A DNA stretch of 64,000 bases. Source: Naegleria gruberi (lineage: Eukaryota). The stretch lies in NCBI GenBank assembly GCA_000004985.1, contig GG738884.1; one strand, 5' to 3'. The position numbers were made by a program, and so were the translations under genes. Under the pieces are notes generated by a model that did no database searches, was not told the origin of the DNA, and was given only the letters and a program-made list of their open reading frames with translations. Shown in pieces: positions 1,894-52,498 of the stretch. The number at the start of each line of letters is the position of its first letter. The first letter of the stretch is position 1.

Positions 1894-4194
1894 CTAAGTG
1901 AGTTCATGTTTTAGAGACAACAACCAGTTTCCATGCTTTAAAAACATGTCCCTTTTGTGATCTCTTTCAGATATCCACTTGTCTAACTGATTCTGGAATG
2001 CATTAATTTTTCCTTGTAGGATCTTTCTTCTCTTCTCAGTTTGTTTGAAATAATTATGCCATTTTGTTGAAATCATTTGGTAAGATTGAGATGTTTCATC
2101 TAGATTAGTTTGATCAAGTTCTGGGAATATTTTCTTGTAGGCCTTGTAGTTTTCATCAACAGGTGGTTTGTTTTGGAGCTCAATCTTTTTATGGAGAAGG
2201 GCAAGGTCTTCCTCAATTCTGTTCAATATCTTGGCAAGGTGAGACTTGTTTGTGTCAGAATCACTGCTGCTACTGGTAGATAGACTATTAGGGGAATCAG
2301 GATCTGCAGAAATATATGATTCAAAATGGCTCTGATCAATAATACTATCTTCCAGTACTTTGATTTTCTTCTTTCTTAAAGCAATCAGGTTTTGAATTTC
2401 ATTCACTCTCTTGACATCATTATTCAAGCTGTGAGCTTGCTTTTCCAAATGTTGTTTAACACTCTTCAATATCTTATTCATGTTATGCTGGGATCCATCC
2501 TTAATGATGCTTGTATTCAACATATCAGTCTTCCATTCCTCTCTGGCTTGTTCCAACATTTCTTGTCTTGCTCTAATCGTTTCTTTTTCTTGAGAGCAGA
2601 ATTCTTTTGCCTTCTTTAATTTAAGCTTTTCTTCACTAATCTTCTTTTCAGTTTTTTCCTTATACAGAAGGAATTCAGTGTTTTGTTTAGCTAATTGTCT
2701 TGGAGGGGTATTTTCCTTGTCCAAATCAGATATAGAAAGAGGACTTGGGCTTTCATACTTGTTAGATTGCTTAGGTTTCTTAGTTTTAACCAAAATTGGT
2801 TTAAGAGGTGTTGCTAGAACAGGACTTTTTGGGCCCTGTTGGACTGGTATTGGAGACAAAGTTATTGTCTCTATTTCTACATGCTTATTTGCAGGTAATT
2901 GAATGTCTGCTTGGAGACATTCATCTCTAGTTGTTTTTTCTGTTGTCTGTTGTGACTGGTCAATAGTTACAACTTTCTTAGGGGTAATTTGTCTAGGTTC
3001 ACTTGTTTGAGCAAGCATATCTTTGAATGTTTTGGTTATTGTGTTCACACCATCAGATGTGGTTTTGACTCCATCTGTTTGACAGAGACTTGATATTGTT
3101 TGTATTTCAGTTTGAGTTGTTTTGGAGAGAGAAGTCTTCTTTCTCTCAACTTCCACAATCTTTTCAACTATCTTAGGTTTTTCAACAATCTTTTCGACTA
3201 CTTTTTCAACAATCTTCTCGACTGGTTTCTCTACAATTTTCTCTATAATTTTCTCAACAGGTTTTTCGACAACCTTCTCGACTATCTTTTCTACAATTTT
3301 CTCGACTGGTTTCTCTACAATTTTCTCTACAATCTTCTCAACAAGGACCTTAGTATCAATTTTATCAGTTTGACACTCGATAGCCTTAAACGTCTTTGCT
3401 TCAGTTTGTGCTTGATTTTTCTTCAATCTAGCATTTTCCTCAAACATTTCATCTGCTTCTTGTCTTGCTAATGCTATTTGTTTCCTATTTTCAATAAATG
3501 TATCTTGGAGAGTTTGCTTGTGTTTCTTTTCCATGATATCTTTTTCGGTTTGAAGCTGAGTTATTTTGTTCCTGTACTCAACTTCCATCTTATTCTTATT
3601 CTCTCTAAGATCATTTTCTAGTTTTTCATTCTCATTATTCAAGTGTATTATCTTTTTCTGAAGTTCAATCCTTTCCCTGTTTGATAATTCAAGTTGTTGA
3701 TCTAGAGACCTTATTTTGTCTTGTAATTTGATAAGCTCTTCATTGTTTTGCGGAGATGAAGAACTTGATTCTCTAAGCTTCTTTACAGATGATGAAGAAG
3801 ACAAAGTAGTCATATTAGTAAGAGAAGGTATTTCATCTGATGATCGTAAAGAATTGAGCGGATCAAGTTTTGTTGTTGTAATTTTCTTCTTTTTCTTCTT
3901 TTTTTCCTTTTTCAATTTTTCCCTTTCCTTTGCCACTTTTTCCTTATAATAGGCATCAAGTGGATGATCCCATATTGATTCTCCTGAATTAAAATTAAAG
4001 TAATAAAGTTGACCATCGGACTGACAAGGTCTCCATCCATCAGGTAAGGGAGCTTTTATTCCCTCCAAAGCGATTGGTATTAACTCCTTTTCCAGCACAG
4101 GATCAATACCAAGAAATTCTGCATATTTTAAAACATCCTCTTCAGTAGGCTCTTCTTGCTCGATGAAGATATTGTCATCATCAATAGAACTCAT
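1894..4194 (-). CDS. CEP164-like protein with an N-terminal WW domain and a long coiled coil.
   Basis: The N-terminus ([58 protein letters not shown] followed by a poly-K run) matches the CEP164 N-terminal WW module by recall: IGIDP...EGI.APLP..W.PCQ...G..YYFNF..G.S.WDHP.D..Y, then a K-run. The rest is an extended heptad-rich coiled coil with an internal VEKI/PVEK tandem repeat. Confidence 0.7.
3140..3360 (-). repeat. In-frame tandem repeat with a 12-nt unit encoding (I/P)VEK x about 17, inside the CEP164-like CDS.
   Basis: The protein reads [31 protein letters not shown]... The antisense strand gives spurious FSTIFST and NFLYNFL ORFs in the track. Confidence 0.8.
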
Positions 4195-30033: not shown

Positions 30034-32160
30034 TTAAAGAAAATCAAGGGTTGTAAAGTATTTGGGAAGGTAGAAATCTGAAGAATAGCTCAATTTCATT
30101 CTCTTGAAGAGTAGGTCCTTAATATATTCAGCTTGCATTGTATCCAGTGATTCAAGTGAAAAATATCCACATTGTTTTAGAGCTTCAAGTTCTAGAGTTT
30201 CATCAGTAAACCTTGAGTAATGGTATAAAAATCCACATGACCGAACAGCTCTCAGGTTGAATTCCCAATCTTCCATAATTTCGTGTGGTACAAATGAATA
30301 AAATTGAAATGCTGTTTCAAATTTGTTAATGCATGATAATACTATTTCAGGATCTGATTTAACTTTCAAAGCCAAATGTTGAATCAAATATGTATTCTTC
30401 TTACAAACTTCCACAACAGTTTGCTTATCTTTTTCATATATAGCTTGTTGAATCTGATGATCAATATAGTCAAAGTAGTTTGGGTATTTTTGCATAACTT
30501 CAATGAGCAGATCTATCAGTTCAATTTGCATCTCAGAGGATGAATAAATTAAAGAAACTGGGTGTTTTCTGATGAGGTCTAATTGTTTCTCTGGTGGAAA
30601 ACATTCAATTAGTGATGGATGATTATTTAACATTTCATCGACCAAAGCTTCTTCTTCCAAAAAGTGTGGTGGAATAATTTCCAGCCAACCATCATTACAC
30701 CTATCGTTAGATAACAGAGCTCTCACGAATTCTCTATCATTTTTCATATATTCTGGCACTTCTATATCAGTAATTTTTCTACATTTTTGTGCCATGAATA
30801 ATAGAATATCCTTGTCTTGCTTGAGTTGTGGAGAAATAAACTCATAATTTTCAATATCAACTCTTAAAGATATCAATATTAATTCCTTATCATTACGTAA
30901 TTTTTCATTCAGTAAATCCACGAAAAGACAGTCATACGGCTTATTCTCACAAATTATTTGTAAAGCGTCCATAATAAATTCTCTATTACTTCCAAGCTCT
31001 GAGCATTCTAAAGTTTTACGCAACTTTGGATCTATTGATAAATATCTCAAGCAAAATTCTGGATCTGATTTCAACTTAATGGAAGCCAAACTGAATATAC
31101 AATGATCAATTTCAATAAGTTTCAAAACAAATTCTGGATCTTCCATCAGGCTCTTATGCGCAAATTGAAAACTCTGTGACTTGGAAATACAAGCCTTTTC
31201 AACTATTTCCTTATCTTTTCTGAAAGATTCATCTGCAAATTCAAGACTCAAGCCATCATTAATAACAGCACATAAAGTAATTTCTCTATCGAGTTTCAAC
31301 TGATCAGAAATAAATTTCAAACAATAGCCATTGGTTTTAAGTACTTGTATCATTTTACACTTGTCATTCCTTATTTCAAATGGGAGGTCTTCAAATTTTG
31401 AGTTTTTGTAGGGATCTTCAATATGATAACCTAGTATATCTATATCATTAACAGCCAAAAAAACATGCTTATTTTCTTGTAACACTTTCTTAAACCATTC
31501 TTCATTGTACAATAATGATTCATCTGCACTTTCAATGGAATAAATCGATTTCTGAACAGCTTTTGACATGAAATCTTCAGATTTCAATAGGTCTTCATCA
31601 ACTCCGCAAAGATATCTATGATCCGACTCCACAATTTCTAGAATAAACTCAATATCACTAGCAAGTTTATCTGCTAGAAATTCCAAAACATGGAATGTTT
31701 GAAACTTTGACTTTAACATTGCTCTTACAATTTCCTTGTCTCCTCTCAATTCTTCACTTCCTGCAGCAAACATGCCATTATAAACAGAGATTAGTCTCAA
31801 TAGTAATTCTCTATCTTTTACACAAACAGCTTCTAATGGAATAAAGTTAATGATAGTATCTCCACTATCAACCCAAAATCTATCACAATACTTTTCCATA
31901 ATTTCAGCAAACATTATACCATCCCGTATCAATTCAATAGGACAAAACACAGGAAGTGTAGAAGAGGTTTTTACATGAAAATCAACATATTCCAAATATC
32001 TACTTTTCGATTCTATAAATTTCCGCATATTTTGTGATTGTCTTTTAAATTTTCTAGTTAATAATTGTTGTTGTTCTCGGAGGTGAATTTCTTCTTGTTT
32101 TGATGATGAATAAATTCCATCACTTACATTAAAAATCACTCTCCCTTCATCTTGTTGCAT
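30034..32160 (-). CDS. DUF4116-like repeat protein with tandem DKEIV...L.YAS... helical repeats.
   Basis: Repeats such as GDKEIVRAMLKSKFQTFHVLEFLADKLASD, KDKEIVEKACISKSQSFQFAHKSLMEDPEFVLKLIE and RNDKELILISLRVD...QDKDILLFMAQK. Confidence 0.5.
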   Translation of the reverse strand: MQQDEGRVIFNVSDGIYSSSKQEEIHLREQQQLLTRKFKRQSQNMRKFIESKSRYLEYVDFHVKTSSTLPVFCPIELIRDGIMFAEIMEKYCDRFWVDSGDTIINFIPLEAVCVKDRELLLRLISVYNGMFAAGSEELRGDKEIVRAMLKSKFQTFHVLEFLADKLASDIEFILEIVESDHRYLCGVDEDLLKSEDFMSKAVQKSIYSIESADESLLYNEEWFKKVLQENKHVFLAVNDIDILGYHIEDPYKNSKFEDLPFEIRNDKCKMIQVLKTNGYCLKFISDQLKLDREITLCAVINDGLSLEFADESFRKDKEIVEKACISKSQSFQFAHKSLMEDPEFVLKLIEIDHCIFSLASIKLKSDPEFCLRYLSIDPKLRKTLECSELGSNREFIMDALQIICENKPYDCLFVDLLNEKLRNDKELILISLRVDIENYEFISPQLKQDKDILLFMAQKCRKITDIEVPEYMKNDREFVRALLSNDRCNDGWLEIIPPHFLEEEALVDEMLNNHPSLIECFPPEKQLDLIRKHPVSLIYSSSEMQIELIDLLIEVMQKYPNYFDYIDHQIQQAIYEKDKQTVVEVCKKNTYLIQHLALKVKSDPEIVLSCINKFETAFQFYSFVPHEIMEDWEFNLRAVRSCGFLYHYSRFTDETLELEALKQCGYFSLESLDTMQAEYIKDLLFKRMKLSYSSDFYLPKYFTTLDFL

Positions 32161-35065: not shown

Positions 35066-38000
35066 TTAGGCATAATCAAACTCTGTTTCAGAGGATTTGC
35101 TTTTCATTCTATTCTTGAGCCATTTAACTGCATGACGTAATCCAGTTGAGAAATAATTCTGAGTTGCATTAATGGCCAAATTGACATAACTTGATGGTTT
35201 CACACAGACAAGTGCAATAAATGCTGAAATTCTGAAAGCTAAACCAAAGATAACCATCATGTAAATGGTCATTCCCAATTCATTCTCTTCATATCCCATA
35301 TTCTTCAAACTTGTTGAAATGTCATAGATATCACTATATTTGGTAATTTCAATGAGATAGGCATTTTCATGACTGTAGGTAAGGAAAGATATCCATGGCA
35401 TGATATTGATAGGGAATGACATGGCTTTCAATGAAGGAAGAGGTGTTGTTGATCCACTGAATGTGTTAAATATGAAAACTAAAACAACAGCAGTCAATTG
35501 AGCTATTCCTGGTTGAACTATAATCGAAACTAGATATCCTAAACCATATGATGTCCAATAAACTAGTAATAGAACATAATAATATTCATAAACTGGTGCT
35601 CTTGGTGAAACTACAGTGTAATAAATTGTTAAAAAGACAATTGGTGCAATCAAGTTTACAATGAAAAGTGATAAATCTTTAGCCCAGAAATAACAGAAGG
35701 TACTTAATCCTGTTTGACTTTCTCTATTGAAAATTAAACTTTCCTTACCAAATGCTCTGAGTGCTGACATGGCAGCCATCAAAGCCATGCCAAGTGTCAT
35801 GAGTGAAGATGTGGCAGCAACTGGATCATCAACAGGTTGTTTACAAATTTCTTGTAAACCACTTGGACATAATTCATAAATTCCCTTTGGTGGAGGACCA
35901 ACATATACCTTATTATGGTAAACAAGACCCAAGAATGCTGAACAAAGGAAAATTAAGAAAAAGTCCAAAATTAAACTTGGCAAAGTTCTCAAAATTTGAG
36001 TGAAACTTCTCTTGAAACACATCCAGAATTGAGCAAAATAGGAAAATCTTGGATTTTTGAATTGAACTTGTTCTGGTTGATCATTAATTGAAGATTCGCT
36101 ACTAGTTTCGGTTGTTGTTTCTTCTTCGTATAAGTGTTTCTTCATTTCCCAAACTTCTGGTAATGAGATAGGTTCAAACTCTATATCTTTCTGACATGGA
36201 ACTAAACCTGCAGAAACATCAATTACAAAATCAGCCAAATTAGTTCCATTAGGTTTTGGAAATCCTAATTCCTTTTCAAAGTATTCTTCAACTCGTGTGA
36301 CAGGTCCAAGATAAATAGTTTTACCACCCTTTCCTAGCAATAGTAAATTATCAAACATGTTAAATATTTCATATCTAGGTTGATGGATAACAGTAATAAC
36401 TGTCATTCCTGATTTGGCAATTTCTTGTAAACATTGACAGACTTCCATAGATGAACTACTATCCAAACCAGAAGTAGGTTCATCAAGGAAGACTGCAATT
36501 GGACAAGCAACCAATTCAATGCCAACATTAACTCTCTTTCTTTGACCTCCTGAAATTCCACGTTTTTCTTGATCTCCAATTATGGCATGTCTAACATCTT
36601 GTAAATTCAAAACATGAATCACATCATTGACAATGGCGTCAATTTCCTTAGATGGTGTACTTGCATCAAGTCTGGTCTTTGCTGAAAAATATAAAGTTTC
36701 TTCTACTGTGCAAGAACTAATCATAATGTCATCTTGTGGGACGAAACCTAGCTTACTATTGTAATTCGAAAGGTTGTCTCTCTTTCCATTGACGAATACT
36801 TGACCTAATTGAGTTCCATAATAGGCACGATTTGAGAGTGTGGTAATGAAAGTACTTTTACCAGCTCCTGATAAACCCATGACAGCTGTCAATTTGCCAT
36901 GTTTAATTTCACCAGTGACACTATCCAAAACTCTCTTTCCAGAACCTTTCAATGTAAGACCCAAATCCTTGAAACCAATATCAACAGTAAATTGATTAGT
37001 TCTAAAACCAGACGGTTTGTCACTTGCCAACAAATTTGAATTTTCATTAACATCTTTCAAGAACAATTTAGTTCTCTTATGTTTCTTAACATTCTTCAAA
37101 CTATATCTAACATAAAATCTGAAAGCAGCTTCATAAGAAACATAAATAATTGCAATAATAATCATGATAATGACAACCATGGCCAATCCACCAAATTCCA
37201 TTCTATCACTTTTTGTTCCTTTTGGACAATTAGAAAAGAATGAACAACCAGTTGGTTTGATACTTCCCTCACGACAATAATAACCAGCTGGGCATAGGAT
37301 TTTCAAACTGGCATTTGGACAATAGTAAGATTCTGGACACAGCTTGTAGGTGAAGGATCCTTCTGGACAATATTGAGATTCTGAACAGTTTCTAATAGTA
37401 TGAGTGTTTTCACAGTAGAAACCTGCTGGACAGAGTGACTTCTTGTAGGATCCAGGTGGACAATAATCCATAGAATCATTCTTGAATTCACAGAGAGATG
37501 GTTCAATAACTGTATCATTTAAACAATAGGTATTTTCTGGACAATCCAGATTATCTGTGGTTGTTCCATTTTCCATAATAACTACTTGTCTGGCCATGTT
37601 ACAATAATCACCTTCCTTACATGATTCAATTCCAGTGAAATATGGAGTAGTATCACCAACCTTCAATTTCTTAATATAGTAACCAGGAGGAACTGGTAAA
37701 GGACGTTCATATTTTGTTGTACAGATGGTGCCATCTGGACAATCCTCACTTCTCCATAAACTACTGCCGAAACATGTTTGTTTTCCAAATTCTCCATCAC
37801 ACATCAATGGATATGGCATTTGAATGTATGGACAAATGTAACCACTTGGACATGGAATTCTAATTCCAGACAAACAGTAGCTCTCCACAAGACATGGTAT
37901 TCTAGTAAGCGATCTATAAATGAAATCTCCTGGATTTGTCAAAGTATACGGAACTACCAATGTGCTTCTGAAGAGATTACACAAATTACCTCTCAAACAT

Positions 38001-40270
38001 GAGCTTGATAACATGGCAAATTGATTTTCATTGAAATCTCGTGGAGGGGCTTGATTACATGCACCTGAGAATGATTTCAAAAAGACATTATCAGGATCTG
38101 TCTTTAAAGTATCACAGACAAGTTTGAATCTGTCATTGGCTTCAATTTCCCATCTCTTTCTAGTAATGGAAAGGAAGAGGAATTGATTGTTTTCTGAAAC
38201 GAATAAATCAATTACCTTTCCAAGTGCTAAGAAATCATTAACATTATTGGTCATGGCCACGTATCCTTGTTCAATTAAGGAAGGATCATCAGGAGTGGAT
38301 GAGGTTAAATTGAGTGAAATTGCAAGAACTTGCACATTTTTCTTCATTGAAATGTAAATATTTTCTTGCCAGTAACCAAAGAAGAAGGTAAATAAATCTT
38401 CCTGTTGAGTGAATGCTCCTGTGAAAATGTCAATTTCGCATCTGGCTTTTGAGGCATCTTCCATACATTGATCAGTGTCAATTTGTCCTCCTTTCAGATA
38501 GTCAAATTGGCAAATGACAGATGGATTCAAGTGTCTAGTTTCGTTATAAGCAGAAATACCATTCATTGTTTGATTAATGTCCATGAAACTTGATTTGATA
38601 ATTTCAACTTCATCATTCATTTCAGTAATGGTTTGAATATTGTCCAAACATTTACCATTATTCGAATGTTGATTGGCTCCACAATTGAAAGTTTGTGGTC
38701 TATTAGCTGTGTTTCCTTCATTGAAGTTAAAATTATAATTGACAAATTCTGGAATGTGATGTAAAACAAAGGAATACCTTTCGTTTGTTTCACCTTGTTT
38801 CTTCAAGCCCAGACCAATATATAAATTTTGAGAAGGTGGAAATTCTACATTCTCACATGTAGTTTGCAAAGAGAGTTTGATTGGCTTTCTCAATTTATCA
38901 AGAATTGGATAGGCAACAGTAATGGAAGATCCCTCAGGAGCTTGATAAAAAGTATTTAAATTATCTGAATTGACCAAATCAATCTTTCTATAAGAATCTT
39001 GGAACTCTACAATTCTAACTTGCTTTGAAGTGTATATCATAATAAGAGATCTTGAATTAGCCAAATGATTTCTTTCAAAAAATGTTTCTTGAATTCTCAT
39101 TGGTGCTGTCTTTGAAAAATTACCAAAATGAATAAAAGTTTCAATTCTGAAATCTTCATCACTTTCTACATCCCATTTCAATGGAACTGTCATGTAATTC
39201 TGATGCATTACAGTACCTCTAATGAAAATGAGTTGATATCTTGGTTTTTGACCGTCATCAATAATTTTGAGAACACCAACAGAGTAAACATTTTGAGTTT
39301 GAGTATCTCTGAACATTTTCAAATCCAGAACTTGTTTGACATTATCATCCAAACTGTAGAACCAATATCTGTAAAATTCTACCTGATAAAAATTAAACAC
39401 TCCATTAATGTTTAACTTTCCATATTTAGTTACTTGAACTAGGGCAATTTGATCTTGGTCATCTCCAATACCAGTCACTGAACCATATACTTCTCCTTTC
39501 AATAGTTCTCTATAACCAGGATACTTGTAATAAATAGTAAAACCACCATTATAGAAATCTTTAGTATTAACCATGACAACTCTTCCATTTTGATAAAATT
39601 GAAAGAGACGGCCAAAGGATTTACGTCCATTACTTGAATCAACAGCTCTAATAGCAACTACACCTTTACAATCATCTTCTAAAGGTGAATCAATTCCACC
39701 ACATTTGTACTGAAATTCTCCTTTGTTAACAACTTGAACATCTGAGAATATTTCAGGAGTTCCAGCAAATGGATTTGTTTTAGAGCACCACAAGTCAGTA
39801 AAAACAATTGGCATATCAGCAGTACCACATCCATCTTTTGGTCCTGTGTAGAGAGTTGGAGTATCATCATCGCCAATAACTCTTAATTTGATGTTAGAGG
39901 TTGCTCTCTGTTTTTGAAAACTTCTCTTATGTGAACTCTGTGAGTCTATAGCATCTCTCAAATGTTGATACAGAACAGAATCTGGTCTTTTGTAATCAGA
40001 TTGTTGTTCATTCACATGGCTTGCCTTAATGGATGATTCTTGTCTTATGAGAGTATGGTCTTGGAACAAGTATGGATTCATGGAAGGAGCAACAGCAGCA
40101 TGCACACTGCTGATAGTTACTCCTGTTTCTGATAACATGTTATTGCCATTATTGAACTGGTGAAATGTGAAGAAAAGTATCAAGAGTGTGGAAATGATGA
40201 ACAATCTCACACCATGAGAAATTCCGAAAGGATTTGTTGTGGTAGTATGTTGTCGAAGAAGAGGTACCAT
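35066..40270 (-). CDS. ABCG-type half transporter (NBD then TMD) preceded by a roughly 950-aa extracellular domain with Cys-rich repeats and an extra TM helix; 1734 aa.
   Basis: Walker A (GLSGAGKST), ABC signature (ISGGQRKRV) and Walker B (VFLDEPTSGLD) are followed by six TM helices (White/ABCG order). Upstream are an N-terminal hydrophobic leader, a large ectodomain, a CPxGxYC-type Cys-repeat stalk (CPPGSYKKSLCPAGFYCENTHTIRNCSESQYCPEGSFTYKLCPESYYCPNASLKILCPAGYYC) and a TM helix (GGLAMVVIIMIIIAIIYVSY). Confidence 0.85.
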   Translation of the reverse strand: MVPLLRQHTTTTNPFGISHGVRLFIISTLLILFFTFHQFNNGNNMLSETGVTISSVHAAVAPSMNPYLFQDHTLIRQESSIKASHVNEQQSDYKRPDSVLYQHLRDAIDSQSSHKRSFQKQRATSNIKLRVIGDDDTPTLYTGPKDGCGTADMPIVFTDLWCSKTNPFAGTPEIFSDVQVVNKGEFQYKCGGIDSPLEDDCKGVVAIRAVDSSNGRKSFGRLFQFYQNGRVVMVNTKDFYNGGFTIYYKYPGYRELLKGEVYGSVTGIGDDQDQIALVQVTKYGKLNINGVFNFYQVEFYRYWFYSLDDNVKQVLDLKMFRDTQTQNVYSVGVLKIIDDGQKPRYQLIFIRGTVMHQNYMTVPLKWDVESDEDFRIETFIHFGNFSKTAPMRIQETFFERNHLANSRSLIMIYTSKQVRIVEFQDSYRKIDLVNSDNLNTFYQAPEGSSITVAYPILDKLRKPIKLSLQTTCENVEFPPSQNLYIGLGLKKQGETNERYSFVLHHIPEFVNYNFNFNEGNTANRPQTFNCGANQHSNNGKCLDNIQTITEMNDEVEIIKSSFMDINQTMNGISAYNETRHLNPSVICQFDYLKGGQIDTDQCMEDASKARCEIDIFTGAFTQQEDLFTFFFGYWQENIYISMKKNVQVLAISLNLTSSTPDDPSLIEQGYVAMTNNVNDFLALGKVIDLFVSENNQFLFLSITRKRWEIEANDRFKLVCDTLKTDPDNVFLKSFSGACNQAPPRDFNENQFAMLSSSCLRGNLCNLFRSTLVVPYTLTNPGDFIYRSLTRIPCLVESYCLSGIRIPCPSGYICPYIQMPYPLMCDGEFGKQTCFGSSLWRSEDCPDGTICTTKYERPLPVPPGYYIKKLKVGDTTPYFTGIESCKEGDYCNMARQVVIMENGTTTDNLDCPENTYCLNDTVIEPSLCEFKNDSMDYCPPGSYKKSLCPAGFYCENTHTIRNCSESQYCPEGSFTYKLCPESYYCPNASLKILCPAGYYCREGSIKPTGCSFFSNCPKGTKSDRMEFGGLAMVVIIMIIIAIIYVSYEAAFRFYVRYSLKNVKKHKRTKLFLKDVNENSNLLASDKPSGFRTNQFTVDIGFKDLGLTLKGSGKRVLDSVTGEIKHGKLTAVMGLSGAGKSTFITTLSNRAYYGTQLGQVFVNGKRDNLSNYNSKLGFVPQDDIMISSCTVEETLYFSAKTRLDASTPSKEIDAIVNDVIHVLNLQDVRHAIIGDQEKRGISGGQRKRVNVGIELVACPIAVFLDEPTSGLDSSSSMEVCQCLQEIAKSGMTVITVIHQPRYEIFNMFDNLLLLGKGGKTIYLGPVTRVEEYFEKELGFPKPNGTNLADFVIDVSAGLVPCQKDIEFEPISLPEVWEMKKHLYEEETTTETSSESSINDQPEQVQFKNPRFSYFAQFWMCFKRSFTQILRTLPSLILDFFLIFLCSAFLGLVYHNKVYVGPPPKGIYELCPSGLQEICKQPVDDPVAATSSLMTLGMALMAAMSALRAFGKESLIFNRESQTGLSTFCYFWAKDLSLFIVNLIAPIVFLTIYYTVVSPRAPVYEYYYVLLLVYWTSYGLGYLVSIIVQPGIAQLTAVVLVFIFNTFSGSTTPLPSLKAMSFPINIMPWISFLTYSHENAYLIEITKYSDIYDISTSLKNMGYEENELGMTIYMMVIFGLAFRISAFIALVCVKPSSYVNLAINATQNYFSTGLRHAVKWLKNRMKSKSSETEFDYA

Positions 40271-43012: not shown

Positions 43013-43417
43013 ATGATGAACATTAATAGACTCAGACTCGTGAATAGATTCATTGCCTCTTCCACTCCTCATAAGAGTACATCATCACTCCGATACATGA
43101 TCAACAATAATAATTGTATGGCTACTACTACTGCTGCTTCCTTCCATGTTGATATTAAGAATAATCACATTATCTTGACAGAGGAGAAGAGAGTGTTTTT
43201 AGAAGCTTTGAAACTTGAATTGTTTAATAGCAGTCGATCAAATGTGGCGAATATGATCAAGGATAATAGTCAGCAATCATCATCGTATTCTACAGCAACT
43301 GTTGTTTCTAATGATGATGGGTTTGATAAGAGTTTGGAAAACTCACGAAATTTAATGTGTCACAAGAGACATGATGTGCTGACTCAGCAAGAGTCTGAAT
43401 ACTTTTTGTACTTGTAA
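43013..43417 (+). CDS. Hypothetical 134-aa protein, possibly with a mitochondrial presequence.
   Basis: ORF with a basic N-terminus (MMNINRLRLVNRFIASSTPHKSTSSLRYM). Confidence 0.4.
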   Translation: MMNINRLRLVNRFIASSTPHKSTSSLRYMINNNNCMATTTAASFHVDIKNNHIILTEEKRVFLEALKLELFNSSRSNVANMIKDNSQQSSSYSTATVVSNDDGFDKSLENSRNLMCHKRHDVLTQQESEYFLYL

Positions 43418-43488: not shown

Positions 43489-43878
43489 TTATAAGTTAAT
43501 ATTATTGTTGGTTAACTTGGAAATCATGGAGTTGACTCTTGTGAGTTCATTGAGATAGATAGATGCCAATCTATTCAAATCACCCAAACTCATGTCGCCA
43601 TATTGAACATCTGCCAAGGCAATTTCTATTTGATCAACATAAGCACTTTCTTTTTCGCTTAATGACAACTTATTTGATTTAACCTTATCAAGTTCCTTTT
43701 GAGCTTGATCTTTCTGGATTGATACCTTTGAGCAAGCTTGCTGAAGGTGCTCTTGCTTCTTCTTTTCATCTGTAAGAACATTCCTAAGCCTGGTCTTTTC
43801 ATTCTCCATAACTTTGGTCTTCTCTCTCTCTTGTTGGATTAGGGCAAGAAGTTGTTCAACAGTTGGTTGTGCACTCAT
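43489..43878 (-). CDS. Small coiled-coil protein of 129 aa.
   Basis: Heptad-rich ORF with a TAA stop. Confidence 0.45.
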   Translation of the reverse strand: MSAQPTVEQLLALIQQEREKTKVMENEKTRLRNVLTDEKKKQEHLQQACSKVSIQKDQAQKELDKVKSNKLSLSEKESAYVDQIEIALADVQYGDMSLGDLNRLASIYLNELTRVNSMISKLTNNNINL

Positions 43879-43962
43879 ATTGGTTTGTTTTTTTATGTTT
43901 TACTCCAAAAAAAGAAGTTTCCTTAATAATTGTTAATCACCAATTTAGTATCAAACTAAAAA

Positions 43963-45960
43963 ATGTTCAGATACGGCATTGCTTTTTTATTGATTCTGTG
44001 TTGCAGCATTAATGTTTACAGTTTGTCCTCAAAAGTTGTCAGCTGCACCGATGCCTCATGCACAACACAACTTGCAGTTCAAATATCTTTAGCCTTTGGA
44101 AATCAAAAATCGATGTTAGTAGAATTATCAGACACTGTGAATGAAAAGGGAGAAAAAGTTAATCTAAGGCCTATTAAGATTGTTATTCAGAAGTCAGCTC
44201 CGAAGGCTGTGTATCCTCTATTGTATGTGAAAACGTTTAACGGAAAACCAACAGAAAGCATAATTTACAAAGATGACATTCTTGTTCCAACTTGTGATGA
44301 TTCTTCAAAATCAGCAGCTCCAACTTGTGGTTGGGTAAAGGATAGCCAAGGAAACAAAATACCTGATAGCCAAGGCTTTTGTTGCTCCTGTTCAGTAGGA
44401 CAAATGTTCGGGGACAGTTCAGCGTCTAATAGAGGCGCTCTTAATTGTGGATTTATGCAAATGAAGTCTTCTGCTCACTGTTTACGTCTGGGAGAAGTTT
44501 ACTGGGATGCTTATGAAATAGAAGGTTATGTTATGTCATTTGAAATATCAGTATTCATAGGTGAAACTGGGTTTGATGATATTGGAAAAGTCACTGTTTC
44601 ACCATCATCTAAGTTAGCCCAACTGCCAAAAGGAGGAAGAGTAGAGCTTGAAGGGGACTTCTCTGCTTACAAATCAGTCCCACTTTATGAAAGCAAGTAT
44701 CTATTCATTCCAAGCTCTCCCAAAACAAGTCCAATAGTGGTCAACGGCCAAGCCAACTGGATGTTTATTGACAAATCAATGGTTACCTTAAGTGGTTCAG
44801 AATGCGATAAAATTGGTGTGTCATATGCTCAGTTCAGAAACCAACCAAATGCATGCTCAAGACCAGCACTTACTTGTCTAGCAAATCAAATAGAAGATCT
44901 AAGACTTGCAGACGTTGAATTAATGAAATCAGGCCTAAAATCTGGAAAATATATTGTTTCGAATTTTGGATCATTTGCTGTTAACAAAACCAATACAGGA
45001 AATGTATTAGAAAAGTATTTGGATGAAGATACTAATTCTCAGATCAATTTGTATATTAATGGTGAAAATGTAAAGTTTCTAATAACCAAAAGTGCAGCTG
45101 AAATTTCAGAAGCATATGTTAAAACATTTACTTCCCTTTCCAAAGAAGGTGAAATGTTGGTTAGTGTGAAAAACAAAGGCGCAAATGGTTGTTCCTACGT
45201 TGTAACAGTAACAGAATGCAGTGACAACATTCTTACAATTGTTCAACAAACAGTATTTGTAGATGCATCTAATAAGAAAGAATTAACCTTTCAAGTTAGA
45301 TCAGAGCAGAAACTAGCCACAACCAATCAGTGCAAAGTAACTCTGTTGTTTTCTGATGGTGAAAAAATTCAAGATATCACAGTTACCTTTGACTCAAAGG
45401 ATTACGCTTATGAAAATGCAATGGAAAGCAGTGGAGAACAAACAGGAAAAGTGGAAACAGAAGGAGATCACTCACTAGGTCAATGTAAATGTAACTCCCC
45501 ATTCGATGTGGTCTGTATTGTTCTCAATTCAAGCTCATGTACCTCCTACATTATTGGTTGGGTTGCCTCAATAGTTGGTATTATTGCAACTCCTGTAATC
45601 TTTGTCTTTTTGTGGAGATGTGGTCTATTTGGCCTAATGTTCAAGACGTGTAAATGTTGTGCTTGTTGCTGTTCCTTTCTTCCAACAAGTATTATGAATT
45701 GTCTTATTGGTCCTTATAAGAAGAAATCCAAAAAATCCAAGAAATCCAAAAAGAAGAAACGTCACCACTCTTCCTCTGATAGTGAAGATGAAAAGAAATC
45801 CAAAAAGAAAAAGAAGAAGAGCAAGAAGAATAAGAAGAGAAGGAAGAAGAGACGTCAACAACGTAGAGATGATTTTGAAATGGACTATTACAATGACAGA
45901 TACTCAAAGAGGAGAAGTCACAAGGATATTGAACATGATCCAATTGCTAGGTATAAATAG
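43963..45960 (+). CDS. HAP2/GCS1-like class-II-fusogen-type membrane protein (candidate gamete fusogen).
   Basis: Signal peptide (MFRYGIAFLLILCCSINVYS), then a roughly 520-aa Cys-containing ectodomain. It carries a motif I recall as HAP2-GCS1-domain-like (...PTCGWVKDSQGNKIPDSQGFCCSCSVGQMFG...SSAHCLRLGEVYWDAYEIEGY), a single TM helix (IIGWVASIVGIIATPVIFVFLW) and a strongly polybasic cytoplasmic tail (KKKSKKSKKSKKKKRHH...KKSKKKKKKSKKNKKRRKKRRQQRR). Confidence 0.5.
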   Translation: MFRYGIAFLLILCCSINVYSLSSKVVSCTDASCTTQLAVQISLAFGNQKSMLVELSDTVNEKGEKVNLRPIKIVIQKSAPKAVYPLLYVKTFNGKPTESIIYKDDILVPTCDDSSKSAAPTCGWVKDSQGNKIPDSQGFCCSCSVGQMFGDSSASNRGALNCGFMQMKSSAHCLRLGEVYWDAYEIEGYVMSFEISVFIGETGFDDIGKVTVSPSSKLAQLPKGGRVELEGDFSAYKSVPLYESKYLFIPSSPKTSPIVVNGQANWMFIDKSMVTLSGSECDKIGVSYAQFRNQPNACSRPALTCLANQIEDLRLADVELMKSGLKSGKYIVSNFGSFAVNKTNTGNVLEKYLDEDTNSQINLYINGENVKFLITKSAAEISEAYVKTFTSLSKEGEMLVSVKNKGANGCSYVVTVTECSDNILTIVQQTVFVDASNKKELTFQVRSEQKLATTNQCKVTLLFSDGEKIQDITVTFDSKDYAYENAMESSGEQTGKVETEGDHSLGQCKCNSPFDVVCIVLNSSSCTSYIIGWVASIVGIIATPVIFVFLWRCGLFGLMFKTCKCCACCCSFLPTSIMNCLIGPYKKKSKKSKKSKKKKRHHSSSDSEDEKKSKKKKKKSKKNKKRRKKRRQQRRDDFEMDYYNDRYSKRRSHKDIEHDPIARYK

Positions 45961-46008: not shown

Positions 46009-47605
46009 TTACAAAATTATACATAGAGAAGGGCCATCTGTAGTATCTTCGTCATTCCTCTTTCTCTTCTTTGGTTGGTTTGCATTTTTCAAGAATTTTT
46101 CTGGAACTTGAACATGCTCCACAATTTCAAAGTCGTGTGTAAAGTTTCCATCCTCTACAGGTTGTATTTGTGGAGTAATTTCGGTATTTTGTTCTGAAAC
46201 TAATTGTTTCAGATCCAAATCCTTTAGCTCGAATTTCTTATATACAGCCTCTGCATCTTTCCATATTTCGTGAGGTTCTGGGATTTCAAATTCTTTCACT
46301 GCTCCAACTTCTTTAGCTGGAAGGAGATCAGGAACCTCTGATGGCATAGATTGATGGTACACGAGAGAATTCTCACGTGAATACTTCTCGGTAAATCTTT
46401 GAATTTCTGATTCCACTAATTTATATTCATTTTCCAAACTTGCCTTGTCAAATTGAGTGAATAACATTTTAGAATATTCTTTGTAAATACTCTTTGAATT
46501 TTCAAAAAGCTTGGAGGCCTCCTCCATTAATTTCATGGCCTTTCCATTTTCATCATTCTTGTTATAATCAAATGCTGAATATACATGAGAAAGAATATTG
46601 TAAAATGAAACCTTAAGTAATAAATGGACTTTGAGCTTTGGCTCCTCTGACTTGACATATTTCATAGCCTCCTTATACTTTTCGTGGACAAACATTGAGA
46701 GTTTGGCAATAGACTCCAGAGATGTCAACTCTTTTTCTAGAGCAATTCTAATGGCCAGCTCCTGAGCTTGGGCTCTTGTAATGCAATACATCATATTGCA
46801 CATGTCGACAGAGTTACTCTGAGTAAATTTCATTCCACCATAATTTGTCTTGAATTGAACTGCAACATTTTCAGCACAAAACTTCCACAATGAAGCTGAC
46901 CTCAAAATTAATTGAAGTGCTTGCTTTTTGTCAAATACCATTCTTTCATTTGCAAAGTTTAACAAAGAAACACTGGCAGTACTGAGCATCATTAGCATTT
47001 CATATAGGGCATCATTGCTTTCCACCTTGATGGAATTATGCCACCAATTATATACAGAAATGAACTGCAACTTGCTTAACATTGGAAGTGTCTTGGAATC
47101 AACTTTCACTTCTTCCTCCTCCTCTTCCTCTTCCTCACGAACCATAACTCCAGCACCTCCACTTGAAGATGCTCTGTTTCCAGATGATGATTTCTTTGAT
47201 TTCTCCTCCTGTTTGGTCTCTTGTTCCTTATCATCAACCATCGGAGCTGACAAATCCCAAACCAATCCAACCAAGACACTCACATACTCCATAATCTTGT
47301 TATATAATTCTTCATTATCTTTTTCAACCATCAACATTTTCCCATTTGAAAATAACAAACTTACAACTTTTTTGTTCCATCAAATTCCTAACTTGTTCCC
47401 TCTTTTCCATCAATATTTTGGCCAACTCTCCATCAAATGATTTACAATGCCTCTCAAACATCTTTTCAAATACACATCGATTCGTCACTCTGATCGCAAA
47501 TAAACAATTCAAATTTCCATCCAAGGCTTTTCTTCCCTCCGAAGCATACTCCACCAACAAGTGGAAAGGTGGAAAATCTCGATTGCCTGGTAGTTGTGGA
47601 GGCAT
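46009..47605 (-). CDS. BRO1-domain protein (BROX-like), with probably one short intron near 47330-47380.
   Basis: MCNMMYCITRAQAQELAIRIALEKEL resembles the BRO1 core of BROX (VIQCQAEAQEVTIARAIELK). The upstream ORF (47324..47605) and main ORF (46009..47358) overlap in different frames, with a GTAAGT at the junction. Confidence 0.55.
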
Positions 47606-50455: not shown

Positions 50456-52498
50456 TTATCTTCTGTCCTTCTTACCAATCGTTGTCTTACCACTGAACAA
50501 GTGCTTTGGCATCATATTGTAAACAACGTGATCTGTTTCAGCACGTTTACCTTCAGCTTGTATTGTCTTAACCTTCTTATTACGCAAATCAACAGCAGCA
50601 GCTTGCTTCTTTGGATCTTTGATACCAGCAAACTTACCAATCTTGGCAACAAGAGGATTGTGAGGTGTCAAAGTACGAGTTCTCTTACCGAGAGCAGTGT
50701 CATCAATATCAACAGAATCATATTCAGCAGCAGCACGCTTTTCAGAAGCACTTCTATTCATGGCCATCTTGCTTTCACTTCTGGCTCTAGCACCAACACT
50801 CGAAACAGCAAGCTTGTGAGTTCTACCTGATGAAGTAGTTCTAGCAACTGAGTTGGATCTAGCCTTATCCAAAGCTTCTTCTGGAACACCTCTGTTCTTA
50901 AGTTCACCAACAATTGACTTCAAATCAATTGGTTTATCCTTTCTTGTCAACTTAGGATGGTTAGTATTCTTATTATACTTGTTAGTTTGAATGATAATTG
51001 CCTTCTTATCAACAATCTTTTGGTAGTCATCTTCTTCATCAGAGTCAACAAAGTATTCTTCGTCGGCATAGTTAACACCTCCTTCGAATCCACCTTCTTC
51101 TCTGAGTCTTTCTTCTTCTTCAGCTTCGAGTTCTTCCAATCTCTTTTCAATTTCTGGATCCACAAAGTCAGCAATATTCTTTCCGTTAATAAATTCTGGA
51201 ATAATATCATATTTCCATTCTTCGTTCTTTAAAAGATAATGCTTCTTATAATCTGGCATGTAAACACCAGAACCACCTCCTTCATTTTCAAGATGTTTTT
51301 CAGTGATTCTTTCGTCTTCCATTTCATTTTCGATATTTCTCTTCAAAATGACGCTTTCTGGGATTTGTGGCACTCTTGTAATGTCATCTCTCTTCTTTGG
51401 AAGAGCCAAGTGAACTCTGTTCAAAATATTTTCAACTGACTTCTTACCATGACTCATCTTAGCTTCAACTCTGTTTTGGAGCAACAAATCACAAGCTTTA
51501 GTTTTAACTTCATTCAAACCAGATTGGTCAATGTTACTGATAGCAAGCATATCACTACACATATCAGCAACTTCTTGCAACATCTTCTTGTGTAAATCGC
51601 TCAATTCGTCATATTTAACCAAGTCAACCTTTGTTAAAACCAACAAAACTGGTTTACCAGCAAAAAGTGGTTTGACATTCTTGAAAAGGTCACATTGTTG
51701 TTGAATGTTGTATCCACAAGTTTCACTCATATCTAACAAATATAAAATAGTAGAACGCAAGTGAGCCATAGCTGTTATACTTTGCATTTCAATTGTGTTA
51801 CGTTGTTCAAGTGGATGGTCCAAAATACCTGGTGTATCAATCAATTGCCATTTCAAATAACGATATTCCATATGACCAACAAACAAGGATTTGGTTGTGA
51901 AAGGATAAGGTTGAACATCAACTTGAGCACGTGTCATATTATTCATAAAACTAGATTTACCAACGTTTGGATAACCAACTAGAATCAAAGTACGTGATGA
52001 TGGATCAATAGAAGGTAAACGAGCCAAGTGTTGTCTGACTTGTTCAAGATAGATAAGTGATGAATTTTGTTTAGTCAATACTGTAATCATTCTACCCAAA
52101 GCAGCTCTCTTCAATTGTTTGCAACGATATAAAGAGTCACCATATTTAAGTAAACGAACATAATCTCTACCAATAGCATCAACAAGATTTCTGCAGGTAC
52201 TTAATTGACCCAAAGCAAGCTTGTAGTGATCCTTATCATAGAGAACGTTCATCAAATCCTCATAGAATGGGTGAATATCTCCCAATCGTGGGAATTCATC
52301 AAGGATGAGAGTAATTTTATCGTGGATGGCTTGTTGACAAAATTTAACTTTTCTCATGTAGAATCTTCTAATACGATTGATAGCATATTGAGGGTGAATT
52401 TCGGTTGGTGTTTTTCTTTGTGTTTTCGAAAGAACAATGTCCATAAATTCTCTTCCGTTAGGAACTGGTGTAATCTTCTTAAAATTATAAACGACCAT
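50456..52498 (-). CDS. NOG1: Nucleolar GTP-binding protein NOG1 (GTPBP4), a ribosome biogenesis GTPase.
   Basis: MVVYNFKKITPVPNGREFMDIVLSKTQRKTPTEIHP... G1 loop (GYPNVGKSSF), G3 (DTPGILD) and the overall NOG1 N-terminal domain followed by a basic C-terminus. Intronless. Confidence 0.9.
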   Translation of the reverse strand: MVVYNFKKITPVPNGREFMDIVLSKTQRKTPTEIHPQYAINRIRRFYMRKVKFCQQAIHDKITLILDEFPRLGDIHPFYEDLMNVLYDKDHYKLALGQLSTCRNLVDAIGRDYVRLLKYGDSLYRCKQLKRAALGRMITVLTKQNSSLIYLEQVRQHLARLPSIDPSSRTLILVGYPNVGKSSFMNNMTRAQVDVQPYPFTTKSLFVGHMEYRYLKWQLIDTPGILDHPLEQRNTIEMQSITAMAHLRSTILYLLDMSETCGYNIQQQCDLFKNVKPLFAGKPVLLVLTKVDLVKYDELSDLHKKMLQEVADMCSDMLAISNIDQSGLNEVKTKACDLLLQNRVEAKMSHGKKSVENILNRVHLALPKKRDDITRVPQIPESVILKRNIENEMEDERITEKHLENEGGGSGVYMPDYKKHYLLKNEEWKYDIIPEFINGKNIADFVDPEIEKRLEELEAEEEERLREEGGFEGGVNYADEEYFVDSDEEDDYQKIVDKKAIIIQTNKYNKNTNHPKLTRKDKPIDLKSIVGELKNRGVPEEALDKARSNSVARTTSSGRTHKLAVSSVGARARSESKMAMNRSASEKRAAAEYDSVDIDDTALGKRTRTLTPHNPLVAKIGKFAGIKDPKKQAAAVDLRNKKVKTIQAEGKRAETDHVVYNMMPKHLFSGKTTIGKKDRR

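Follow-up and report, generated by a model that had tools for sequence, protein, structure and literature searches.

Here, we report that a 64,000-nucleotide stretch of Naegleria gruberi DNA (contig GG738884.1 of assembly GCA_000004985.1; hereafter the window) contains, on its plus strand at 43963..45960, a gene that very probably encodes the HAP2/GCS1 orthologue of N. gruberi, a membrane protein of type I topology that has the class II fusogen fold. Naegleria belongs to the heterolobosean (Discoba) amoeboflagellates, and HAP2 is the ancestral eukaryotic gamete fusogen. In the list of open reading frames (ORFs) of the window, the gene is an intact single exon that runs from ATG to stop and encodes 665 amino acids followed by TAG. 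Two codons before the ATG, at 43957, lies an in-frame TAA, so that the frame does not extend further in the 5' direction unless an intron is present. The GC content of the coding sequence (CDS) is 36.5%, compared with 21% in the 5' spacer (84 bp) and 12.5% in the 3' spacer (48 bp). A tblastn search with the ectodomain as query found no further HAP2 copy in the window.

Residues 51-665 are 100% identical (615/615) to a deposited N. gruberi protein (EFC41606.1 / XP_002674350.1 / UniProt D2VN83), the product of locus NAEGRDRAFT_70404 on a 363,092-bp N. gruberi scaffold. The public annotation of XP_002674350.1 names the product only as 'predicted protein', and the protein-database entry already carries PF10699. 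Three neighbouring ORFs are also exact matches to N. gruberi genes on the same scaffold (NAEGRDRAFT_70403, the ABC transporter XP_002674440.1, and NAEGRDRAFT_70410). The initial annotation, made from the sequence alone, had placed the gene in a dictyostelid, with macrocyst-type fusion as its setting; these identities show that the placement was wrong. A dictyostelid HAP2 paralogue was likewise rejected, given the N. gruberi identity and the absence of any dictyostelid among 76 database matches.

Family membership and predicted fold

The same annotation had proposed a HAP2/GCS1 homologue on the basis of its architecture, and this part of the proposal is borne out by both profile and fold. The protein matches the HAP2-GCS1 profile (PF10699) with E = 2.1e-105 and 353.7 bits, against a curated cut-off of 27.4 bits, and the match covers nearly the full model (residues 33-523 of the protein align to positions 4-513 of the 515 in the profile). 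With a score of this size the resemblance to HAP2 is not due to chance. A Pfam scan of the protein recovered no other significant family. Searches of PDB sequences with phmmer returned exclusively HAP2 structures, namely those of Trypanosoma cruzi (5ow4; 1.1e-58, query residues 32-522), Chlamydomonas (5mf1/6dbs/6e18; ~1e-43), C. merolae (7s0k; 4.8e-42), and Arabidopsis (5ow3; 3e-38).

An alignment of 54 homologues made with MAFFT was the basis for all conservation counts and for an AlphaFold2 (AF2) model. The model has a mean predicted local distance difference test (pLDDT) score of 80 and scores at least 90 in 286 residues, and low confidence is limited to the stem (residues 483-507, pLDDT <50) and the cytoplasmic tail. 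The predicted structure has the three-domain class II fold and is closest to solved HAP2 ectodomains. When the model was compared with the PDB by Foldseek, HAP2 structures took the first nine places (E = 5.5e-40 to 1.3e-18), followed by archaeal Fsx1 (~1e-16) and then by viral class II glycoproteins and EFF-1 (~1e-13 to 1e-12). Thus, the fold search retrieves HAP2 ectodomains first and other class II fusogens after them, and neither sequence nor structure searches gave a closer match to viral class II proteins, EFF-1 (FF), or archaeal Fsx1 than to HAP2. The model superposes over 385 residues on C. merolae 7s0k, which we take to be a monomeric form, as compared with 307-310 residues on the trimeric Chlamydomonas and Arabidopsis structures. 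The wider superposition on 7s0k reflects the prediction itself and should not be given biological meaning.

The layout of the protein is that predicted for type I topology, with a signal peptide, a large ectodomain, one C-terminal transmembrane (TM) helix, and a cytoplasmic tail, as judged from hydropathy and the AF2 model. The N-terminus is hydrophobic over residues 1-26 (MFRYGIAFLLILCCSINVYS; 19-residue Kyte-Doolittle mean 1.6-1.8), the ectodomain (residues 21-522) contains 18 Cys, and the 83-residue polybasic tail has 39 K/R vs 12 D/E, including four copies of KKSKK and one of RRKKRR (at residue 626). The signal peptide, the Cys-containing ectodomain, the single TM helix, and the polybasic tail with its KKSKK and RRKKRR runs had all been noted at the outset, as had the DSQGFCCSC segment (residues 135-143) and AHCLRLGEVYWD (residues 171-182), and all are present. 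Within DSQGFCCSC, conservation is 90% or higher at S136, Q137, G138, F139, C140, and C141; in AHCLRLGEVYWD, A171 and H172 reach at least 90% and C173 is invariant.

Fourteen conserved ectodomain Cys are kept (C111, C122, C140, C141, C143, C162, C173, C281, C298, C305, C419, C457, C518, and C526), in columns where 47-54 of the 54 homologues have Cys. In the stem, C510, C518, and C526 are conserved in most homologues. C143 and C173 flank a fusion loop of 29 residues, and R157 divides this region (SVGQMFGDSSASNRGALNCGFMQMKSSAH) in two; M148/F149 on one side and F164/M165/M167 on the other are likely the membrane-inserting side chains. In the phmmer alignment to Chlamydomonas 5mf1, E98 is aligned to the E of KPLEVIL and R157 to the second R of RTRANLDC. 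Because chain and full-length numbering differ by a constant offset of 20, the aligned Chlamydomonas residues are E126 and R185. This pair is highly conserved in HAP2/GCS1, and R185 is essential to Chlamydomonas gamete fusion and liposome binding (PMC8777248). As far as residue identity goes, the Glu-Arg pair is present in Naegleria HAP2: the E98 column has E in 50/54 homologues, and R157 is invariant among the four heterolobosean-type sequences.

Gene model correction

The deposited N. gruberi protein begins at Met51, so that both the signal peptide and the earliest conserved strands are missing from it. Alignments to the Pfam profile and to 5ow4 start at residues 32-33, upstream of Met51, and the AF2 model has confident strands at residues 21-27 and 35-43, also upstream of it. 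In the Willaertia protein, a homologous signal peptide precedes SLSSK..C, and the sequence that represents the HAP2 orthogroup in the supplement to the Naegleria pangenome has a signal peptide and then LSSKYVSC (PMC9928731). In N. lovaniensis, residues 18-664 are aligned by tblastn in one frame that begins 393 nt 5' of the annotated start; the full ORF encodes 666 amino acids and begins MHKIIIFLLCLIISRNFVSA|ISSKIRTC. The annotated N. lovaniensis protein XP_044555849.1 (518 aa) is short of 148 N-terminal residues, whose codons lie in-frame upstream (3557-4000 of locus L004). Together, the upstream alignments, the predicted strands, and the N-termini of the orthologues indicate that both public Naegleria models are 5'-truncated. 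We therefore favour the ATG at 43963, 50 codons upstream of the deposited one, as the start. The corrected model, with its signal peptide, is needed for expressing the protein and for designing probes or antibodies, and the N. lovaniensis model should be corrected in the same way.

Heterolobosean orthologues and selection

The closest other relatives are in Willaertia magna (54% identity) and N. lovaniensis (55-58%). The orthologues are uninterrupted and of near-equal length, with 665 residues in N. gruberi, 666 in N. lovaniensis, and 677 in Willaertia magna. Both the Willaertia protein (KAL9655103.1) and the extended XP_044555849.1 likewise have a signal peptide and then an SSK..C start. A juxtamembrane Cys cluster, CKCCACCC, is identical in N. 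gruberi, N. lovaniensis, and Willaertia, and the polybasic character of the tail is common to all three, although the tail sequences themselves diverge. A C-terminal P(I/V)ARY motif is common to N. gruberi and N. lovaniensis.

Among the heterolobosean orthologues, the proportion of nonsynonymous differences (pN) is 0.30-0.34, compared with a saturated proportion of synonymous differences (pS) of 0.76-0.79, which indicates strong purifying selection. A comparison of N. gruberi with N. lovaniensis by region gives a pN of 0.13 in the TM helix plus Cys cluster (45541-45708), 0.21 in the stem, 0.30 in the ectodomain, and 0.44 in the tail, and thus the TM helix with CKCCACCC is the most conserved part of HAP2 in this comparison. 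Membrane anchors are not usually so conserved, and a function may lie behind it, for instance palmitoylation or oligomerisation. In HAP2 proteins elsewhere, altering or deleting polybasic residues or potentially palmitoylated Cys of the cytosolic domain affected localisation or function (PMC8777248). By analogy with those proteins, CKCCACCC may be palmitoylated, and the module of TM helix, Cys cluster, and polybasic tail probably governs membrane targeting or regulation. The finding of intact, syntenic orthologues under purifying selection in three genera is consistent with a fusogen that is in use.

Proposed function and alternative explanations

Solved and tested orthologues provide the steps of a putative mechanism. 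HAP2 would be made with a signal peptide and anchored through its one TM helix, and its retention at the plasma membrane, or its targeting there, would probably depend on the Cys cluster (through probable palmitoylation) and the polybasic tail. When a partner cell is met, two short hydrophobic loops at the domain II tip would enter the opposing membrane, with M148/F149 and F164/M165/M167 kept in shape by an E98-R157 salt bridge. HAP2 would then trimerise, and domain III and the stem would fold back and draw the membranes together, leading to hemifusion and then to a pore. The fusing cells are presumably gametes, in a sexual cycle that Naegleria has not yet been seen to undergo. Since no such cycle has been observed in Naegleria, we infer this role from orthology.

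On balance, we lean towards HAP2 being the working fusogen of a cryptic Naegleria sexual cycle, with a heterolobosean-specific module of TM helix, CKCCACCC, and polybasic tail controlling its delivery or activation. Several points weigh against reading the gene as a gamete fusogen. Mating, gametes, and cell fusion have yet to be described in Naegleria, and the evidence of sex is indirect, consisting of heterozygosity, signs of recombination, and a set of meiotic genes (PMC9928731). R157 is R in only 37/54 homologues and lies in a poorly aligning loop of the MAFFT alignment. The AF2 model is a monomer, and no numerical ratio of nonsynonymous to synonymous rates (dN/dS) can be given because synonymous sites are saturated (pS at least 0.75).

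A true HAP2 orthologue could also act in non-gametic fusion, for example in somatic or parasexual fusion between amoebae, and not in syngamy followed by meiosis. This would fit the lack of an observed sexual cycle (PMC9928731), and fusexins, with EFF-1 among the fold matches, drive somatic fusion in other lineages; sequence alone is silent on which cells fuse. We nevertheless regard non-gametic fusion as improbable: loss of HAP2/GCS1 leads to failure of gamete fusion in the organisms tested (PMC5350521; PMC8777248), and Naegleria genomes carry the meiosis-specific genes SPO11, DMC1, HOP2, MND1, and MSH4/5. It is still harder to see the gene as a decaying relic of lost sexuality, with an ORF that is open yet disused. 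The bare public product name would suit a relic, but full-length, stop-free ORFs occur in three genera, pN is 0.30 vs a saturated pS of ~0.77 (and 0.13 in the TM helix plus Cys cluster), the family Cys that were checked and the E98/R157 pair are all kept, and synteny is maintained.

The least credible alternative, to which we give almost no weight, is that the gene is an endogenised viral class II envelope, or belongs to another fusexin family (EFF-1-like or Fsx1-like), and is not HAP2 proper. Viral class II glycoproteins, EFF-1, and Fsx1 are all among the fold matches, and N. gruberi has a modelled EFF-1/AFF-1-like protein, D2W008, that is separate from the HAP2 gene (PMC5350521). However, the large gap between the scores of HAP2 and those of the other families and the presence of HAP2-specific residues both speak against such an identity.

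The presence of HAP2 in Naegleria is correct and already known. Wong and Johnson (2010) and Speijer et al. (2015) reportedly count N. gruberi among the HAP2-positive species. The Naegleria pangenome paper places HAP2 among the core syngamy genes of the genus, as orthogroup OG0000563; N. gruberi ATCC 30224 has one copy, and the compared N. fowleri and N. lovaniensis strains have 1-4 (PMC9928731). A second orthogroup, OG0010275, is also labelled HAP2 (PMC9928731 Table S6), and with D2W008 it makes up the further fusexin candidates that the literature suggests for other parts of the N. gruberi genome. A full-text literature search found no paper that names XP_002674350, D2VN83, NAEGRDRAFT_70404, or EFC41606, and the main text of the N. 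fowleri genome paper does not mention HAP2. Two further papers in which Naegleria and HAP2 both occur draw no link between them. As Naegleria HAP2 is already in the literature, our result is a confirmation and not a discovery; what it modestly adds is the N-terminal correction and the observation that the TM/Cys module is conserved.

If HAP2 is indeed the fusogen of a cryptic sexual cycle, the gene with its corrected full-length model would be a marker and a handle for the conditions and cell type of Naegleria mating, and its use as a marker would extend to the pathogen N. fowleri, which carries an orthologue. An intact and selected HAP2 in an amoeboflagellate that has never been seen to mate is among the standard arguments for ancestral, cryptic sex in such lineages.

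Feature coordinates and genomic neighbourhood

Table 1. Features of the HAP2/GCS1 gene and its 5' spacer, in window coordinates.
Feature	Coordinates	Strand	Basis
5' spacer (84 bp) from HAP2 ATG to ATG of divergent neighbour	43879..43962	.	21% GC
Complete HAP2/GCS1 CDS	43963..45960	+	ORF, PF10699 match, upstream stop, identity to XP_002674350.1
Predicted signal peptide, ~aa 1-20, MFRYGIAFLLILCCSINVYS	43963..44022	+	hydropathy, AF2 helix 2-13; putative cleavage site
HAP2-GCS1 domain, aa 33-523: class II ectodomain, domains I, II, III and part of stem	44059..45531	+	
Met51, start codon of deposited 615-aa model (truncated start)	44113..44115	+	BLASTP alignment to residues 51-665
Glu98, equivalent of Chlamydomonas E126, salt-bridge partner	44254..44256	+	5mf1 alignment
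DSQGFCCSC, aa 135-143, most conserved HAP2 signature	44365..44391	+	54-homologue alignment
Fusion-loop region, C143 to C173, SVGQMFGDSSASNRGALNCGFMQMKSSAH	44389..44481	+	alignment to Chlamydomonas and T. cruzi loops
Arg157, equivalent of Chlamydomonas R185	44431..44433	+	5mf1 alignment
AHCLRLGEVYWD motif, aa 171-182	44473..44508	+	54-homologue alignment
Domain III, immunoglobulin-like beta-sandwich, ~aa 379-477 (approximate boundaries)	45097..45393	+	
Stem, ~aa 478-526, with conserved Cys 508, 510, 518, 526; partly low-confidence linker	45394..45540	+	pLDDT, alignment
Single TM helix, ~aa 527-552	45541..45618	+	Kyte-Doolittle 19-residue mean up to 2.39; AF2 helix 527-552
Juxtamembrane Cys cluster CKCCACCC, aa 563-570, candidate palmitoylation site	45649..45672	+	identical in orthologues
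Polybasic cytoplasmic tail, aa 583-665	45709..45957	+	composition

The gene divergent from HAP2 is NAEGRDRAFT_70403 (43489-43878, minus strand), which encodes a 129-aa protein that is coiled-coil-like by eye and has no Pfam match and no PDB sequence match. The head-to-head pair also occurs in N. lovaniensis, where the small protein is 50% identical and 55 bp separate the ORFs; in the locus comparison, the divergent small neighbour was not found in Willaertia. The closeness of the pair and its recurrence in N. lovaniensis suggest that the spacer is a shared bidirectional promoter region. Another small ORF (43013-43417, plus strand) has no Pfam match.

On the other side, a BRO1-domain gene (46009-47358, minus strand; Pfam E = 3.5e-19) is convergent to HAP2, with 48 bp between the stop codons, and this tail-to-tail order is kept in N. 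lovaniensis and Willaertia magna. Elsewhere in the window, all on the minus strand, are genes for a DUF4116-repeat protein (30034-32160; 7 repeats, E = 1.9e-61), for the 1734-aa ABC transporter with ABC-2-type membrane domains that matches XP_002674440.1 exactly (35066-40270), and for the nucleolar GTPase NOG1 (50456-52498). None of these three has an obvious link to mating.

PF10699 proteins on bacterial contigs

Near-full-length PF10699 proteins are also encoded on contigs with bacterial labels, six loci with Planctomycetota-type labels and one with a Thermodesulfobacteriota label (L001 8207-9886; L002 8272-9897 and 10001-11866; L006-L010). The protein of the first locus (P0026) is 31% identical to Naegleria HAP2 and is encoded on a 24-kb contig among genes for DNA polymerase I, an extracytoplasmic function (ECF) sigma factor, GH20 and GH43 glycosidases, and sulfatases, a planctomycete-like neighbourhood without any eukaryotic gene. 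On the Thermodesulfobacteriota-labelled contig, L002, two PF10699 genes stand in tandem, and P0048 is the product of the second. Both P0026 and P0048, homologues from bacterial metagenome-assembled genomes, retain P96/E98, SQGFC, R157, H172-C173, and the two domain III Cys; six other conserved Cys are lost, and both proteins have a signal-like N-terminus and lack a C-terminal TM helix.

A scan of prokaryotes, with one genome per species and a three-sequence bacterial alignment as query, returned five more loci. All are from Planctomycetota metagenome-assembled genomes of different studies, on contigs up to 98 kb, labelled Phycisphaerae, Sedimentisphaerales, Anaerohalosphaeraceae, or plain Planctomycetota. 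The proteins of L007, L008, and L010 score 163-209 bits on PF10699 and cover nearly the whole profile, and in L008 a phage-type integrase lies 1.6 kb upstream of the PF10699 gene. A homologue from a Joint Genome Institute (JGI) metagenome is eukaryotic and adjoins a dynein heavy chain gene. We found no paper on bacterial PF10699 proteins; the literature searched deals with archaeal Fsx1 only and is cautious on bacterial bin assignments. These proteins lie outside both the window and the HAP2 finding, and may merit a separate look.

Comparison with known fusogens

Archaeal Fusexin1 (7p4l), viral class II proteins, and C. elegans EFF-1 are 8-13% identical to Naegleria HAP2, and every one of their scores falls far under those of the HAP2 structures. 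Viral class II and FF proteins are also without the Glu-Arg fusion-loop salt bridge (PMC8777248). Chlamydomonas reinhardtii HAP2 (5mf1, 6dbs, 6e18) is ~25% identical to the Naegleria protein, and its fusion loop, at 39 aa, is longer (PMC8777248).

The fusion loop of T. cruzi HAP2 (5ow4), on the other hand, has the same length as that of Naegleria, although its residues differ (SVGQMFGDSSASNRGALNCGFMQMKSS in Naegleria against GPCQLLGLCPVGSRGLQVCDIFRGAALAS in T. cruzi) and its two extra Cys are absent from Naegleria HAP2. The cytoplasmic parts vary most in extent. T. cruzi HAP2 has almost no cytoplasmic tail, and the cytoplasmic domain of the Chlamydomonas protein comprises at least 500 residues (PMC8777248), whereas ~110 residues follow the TM helix in Naegleria HAP2 and include both the Cys cluster and the polybasic tail.

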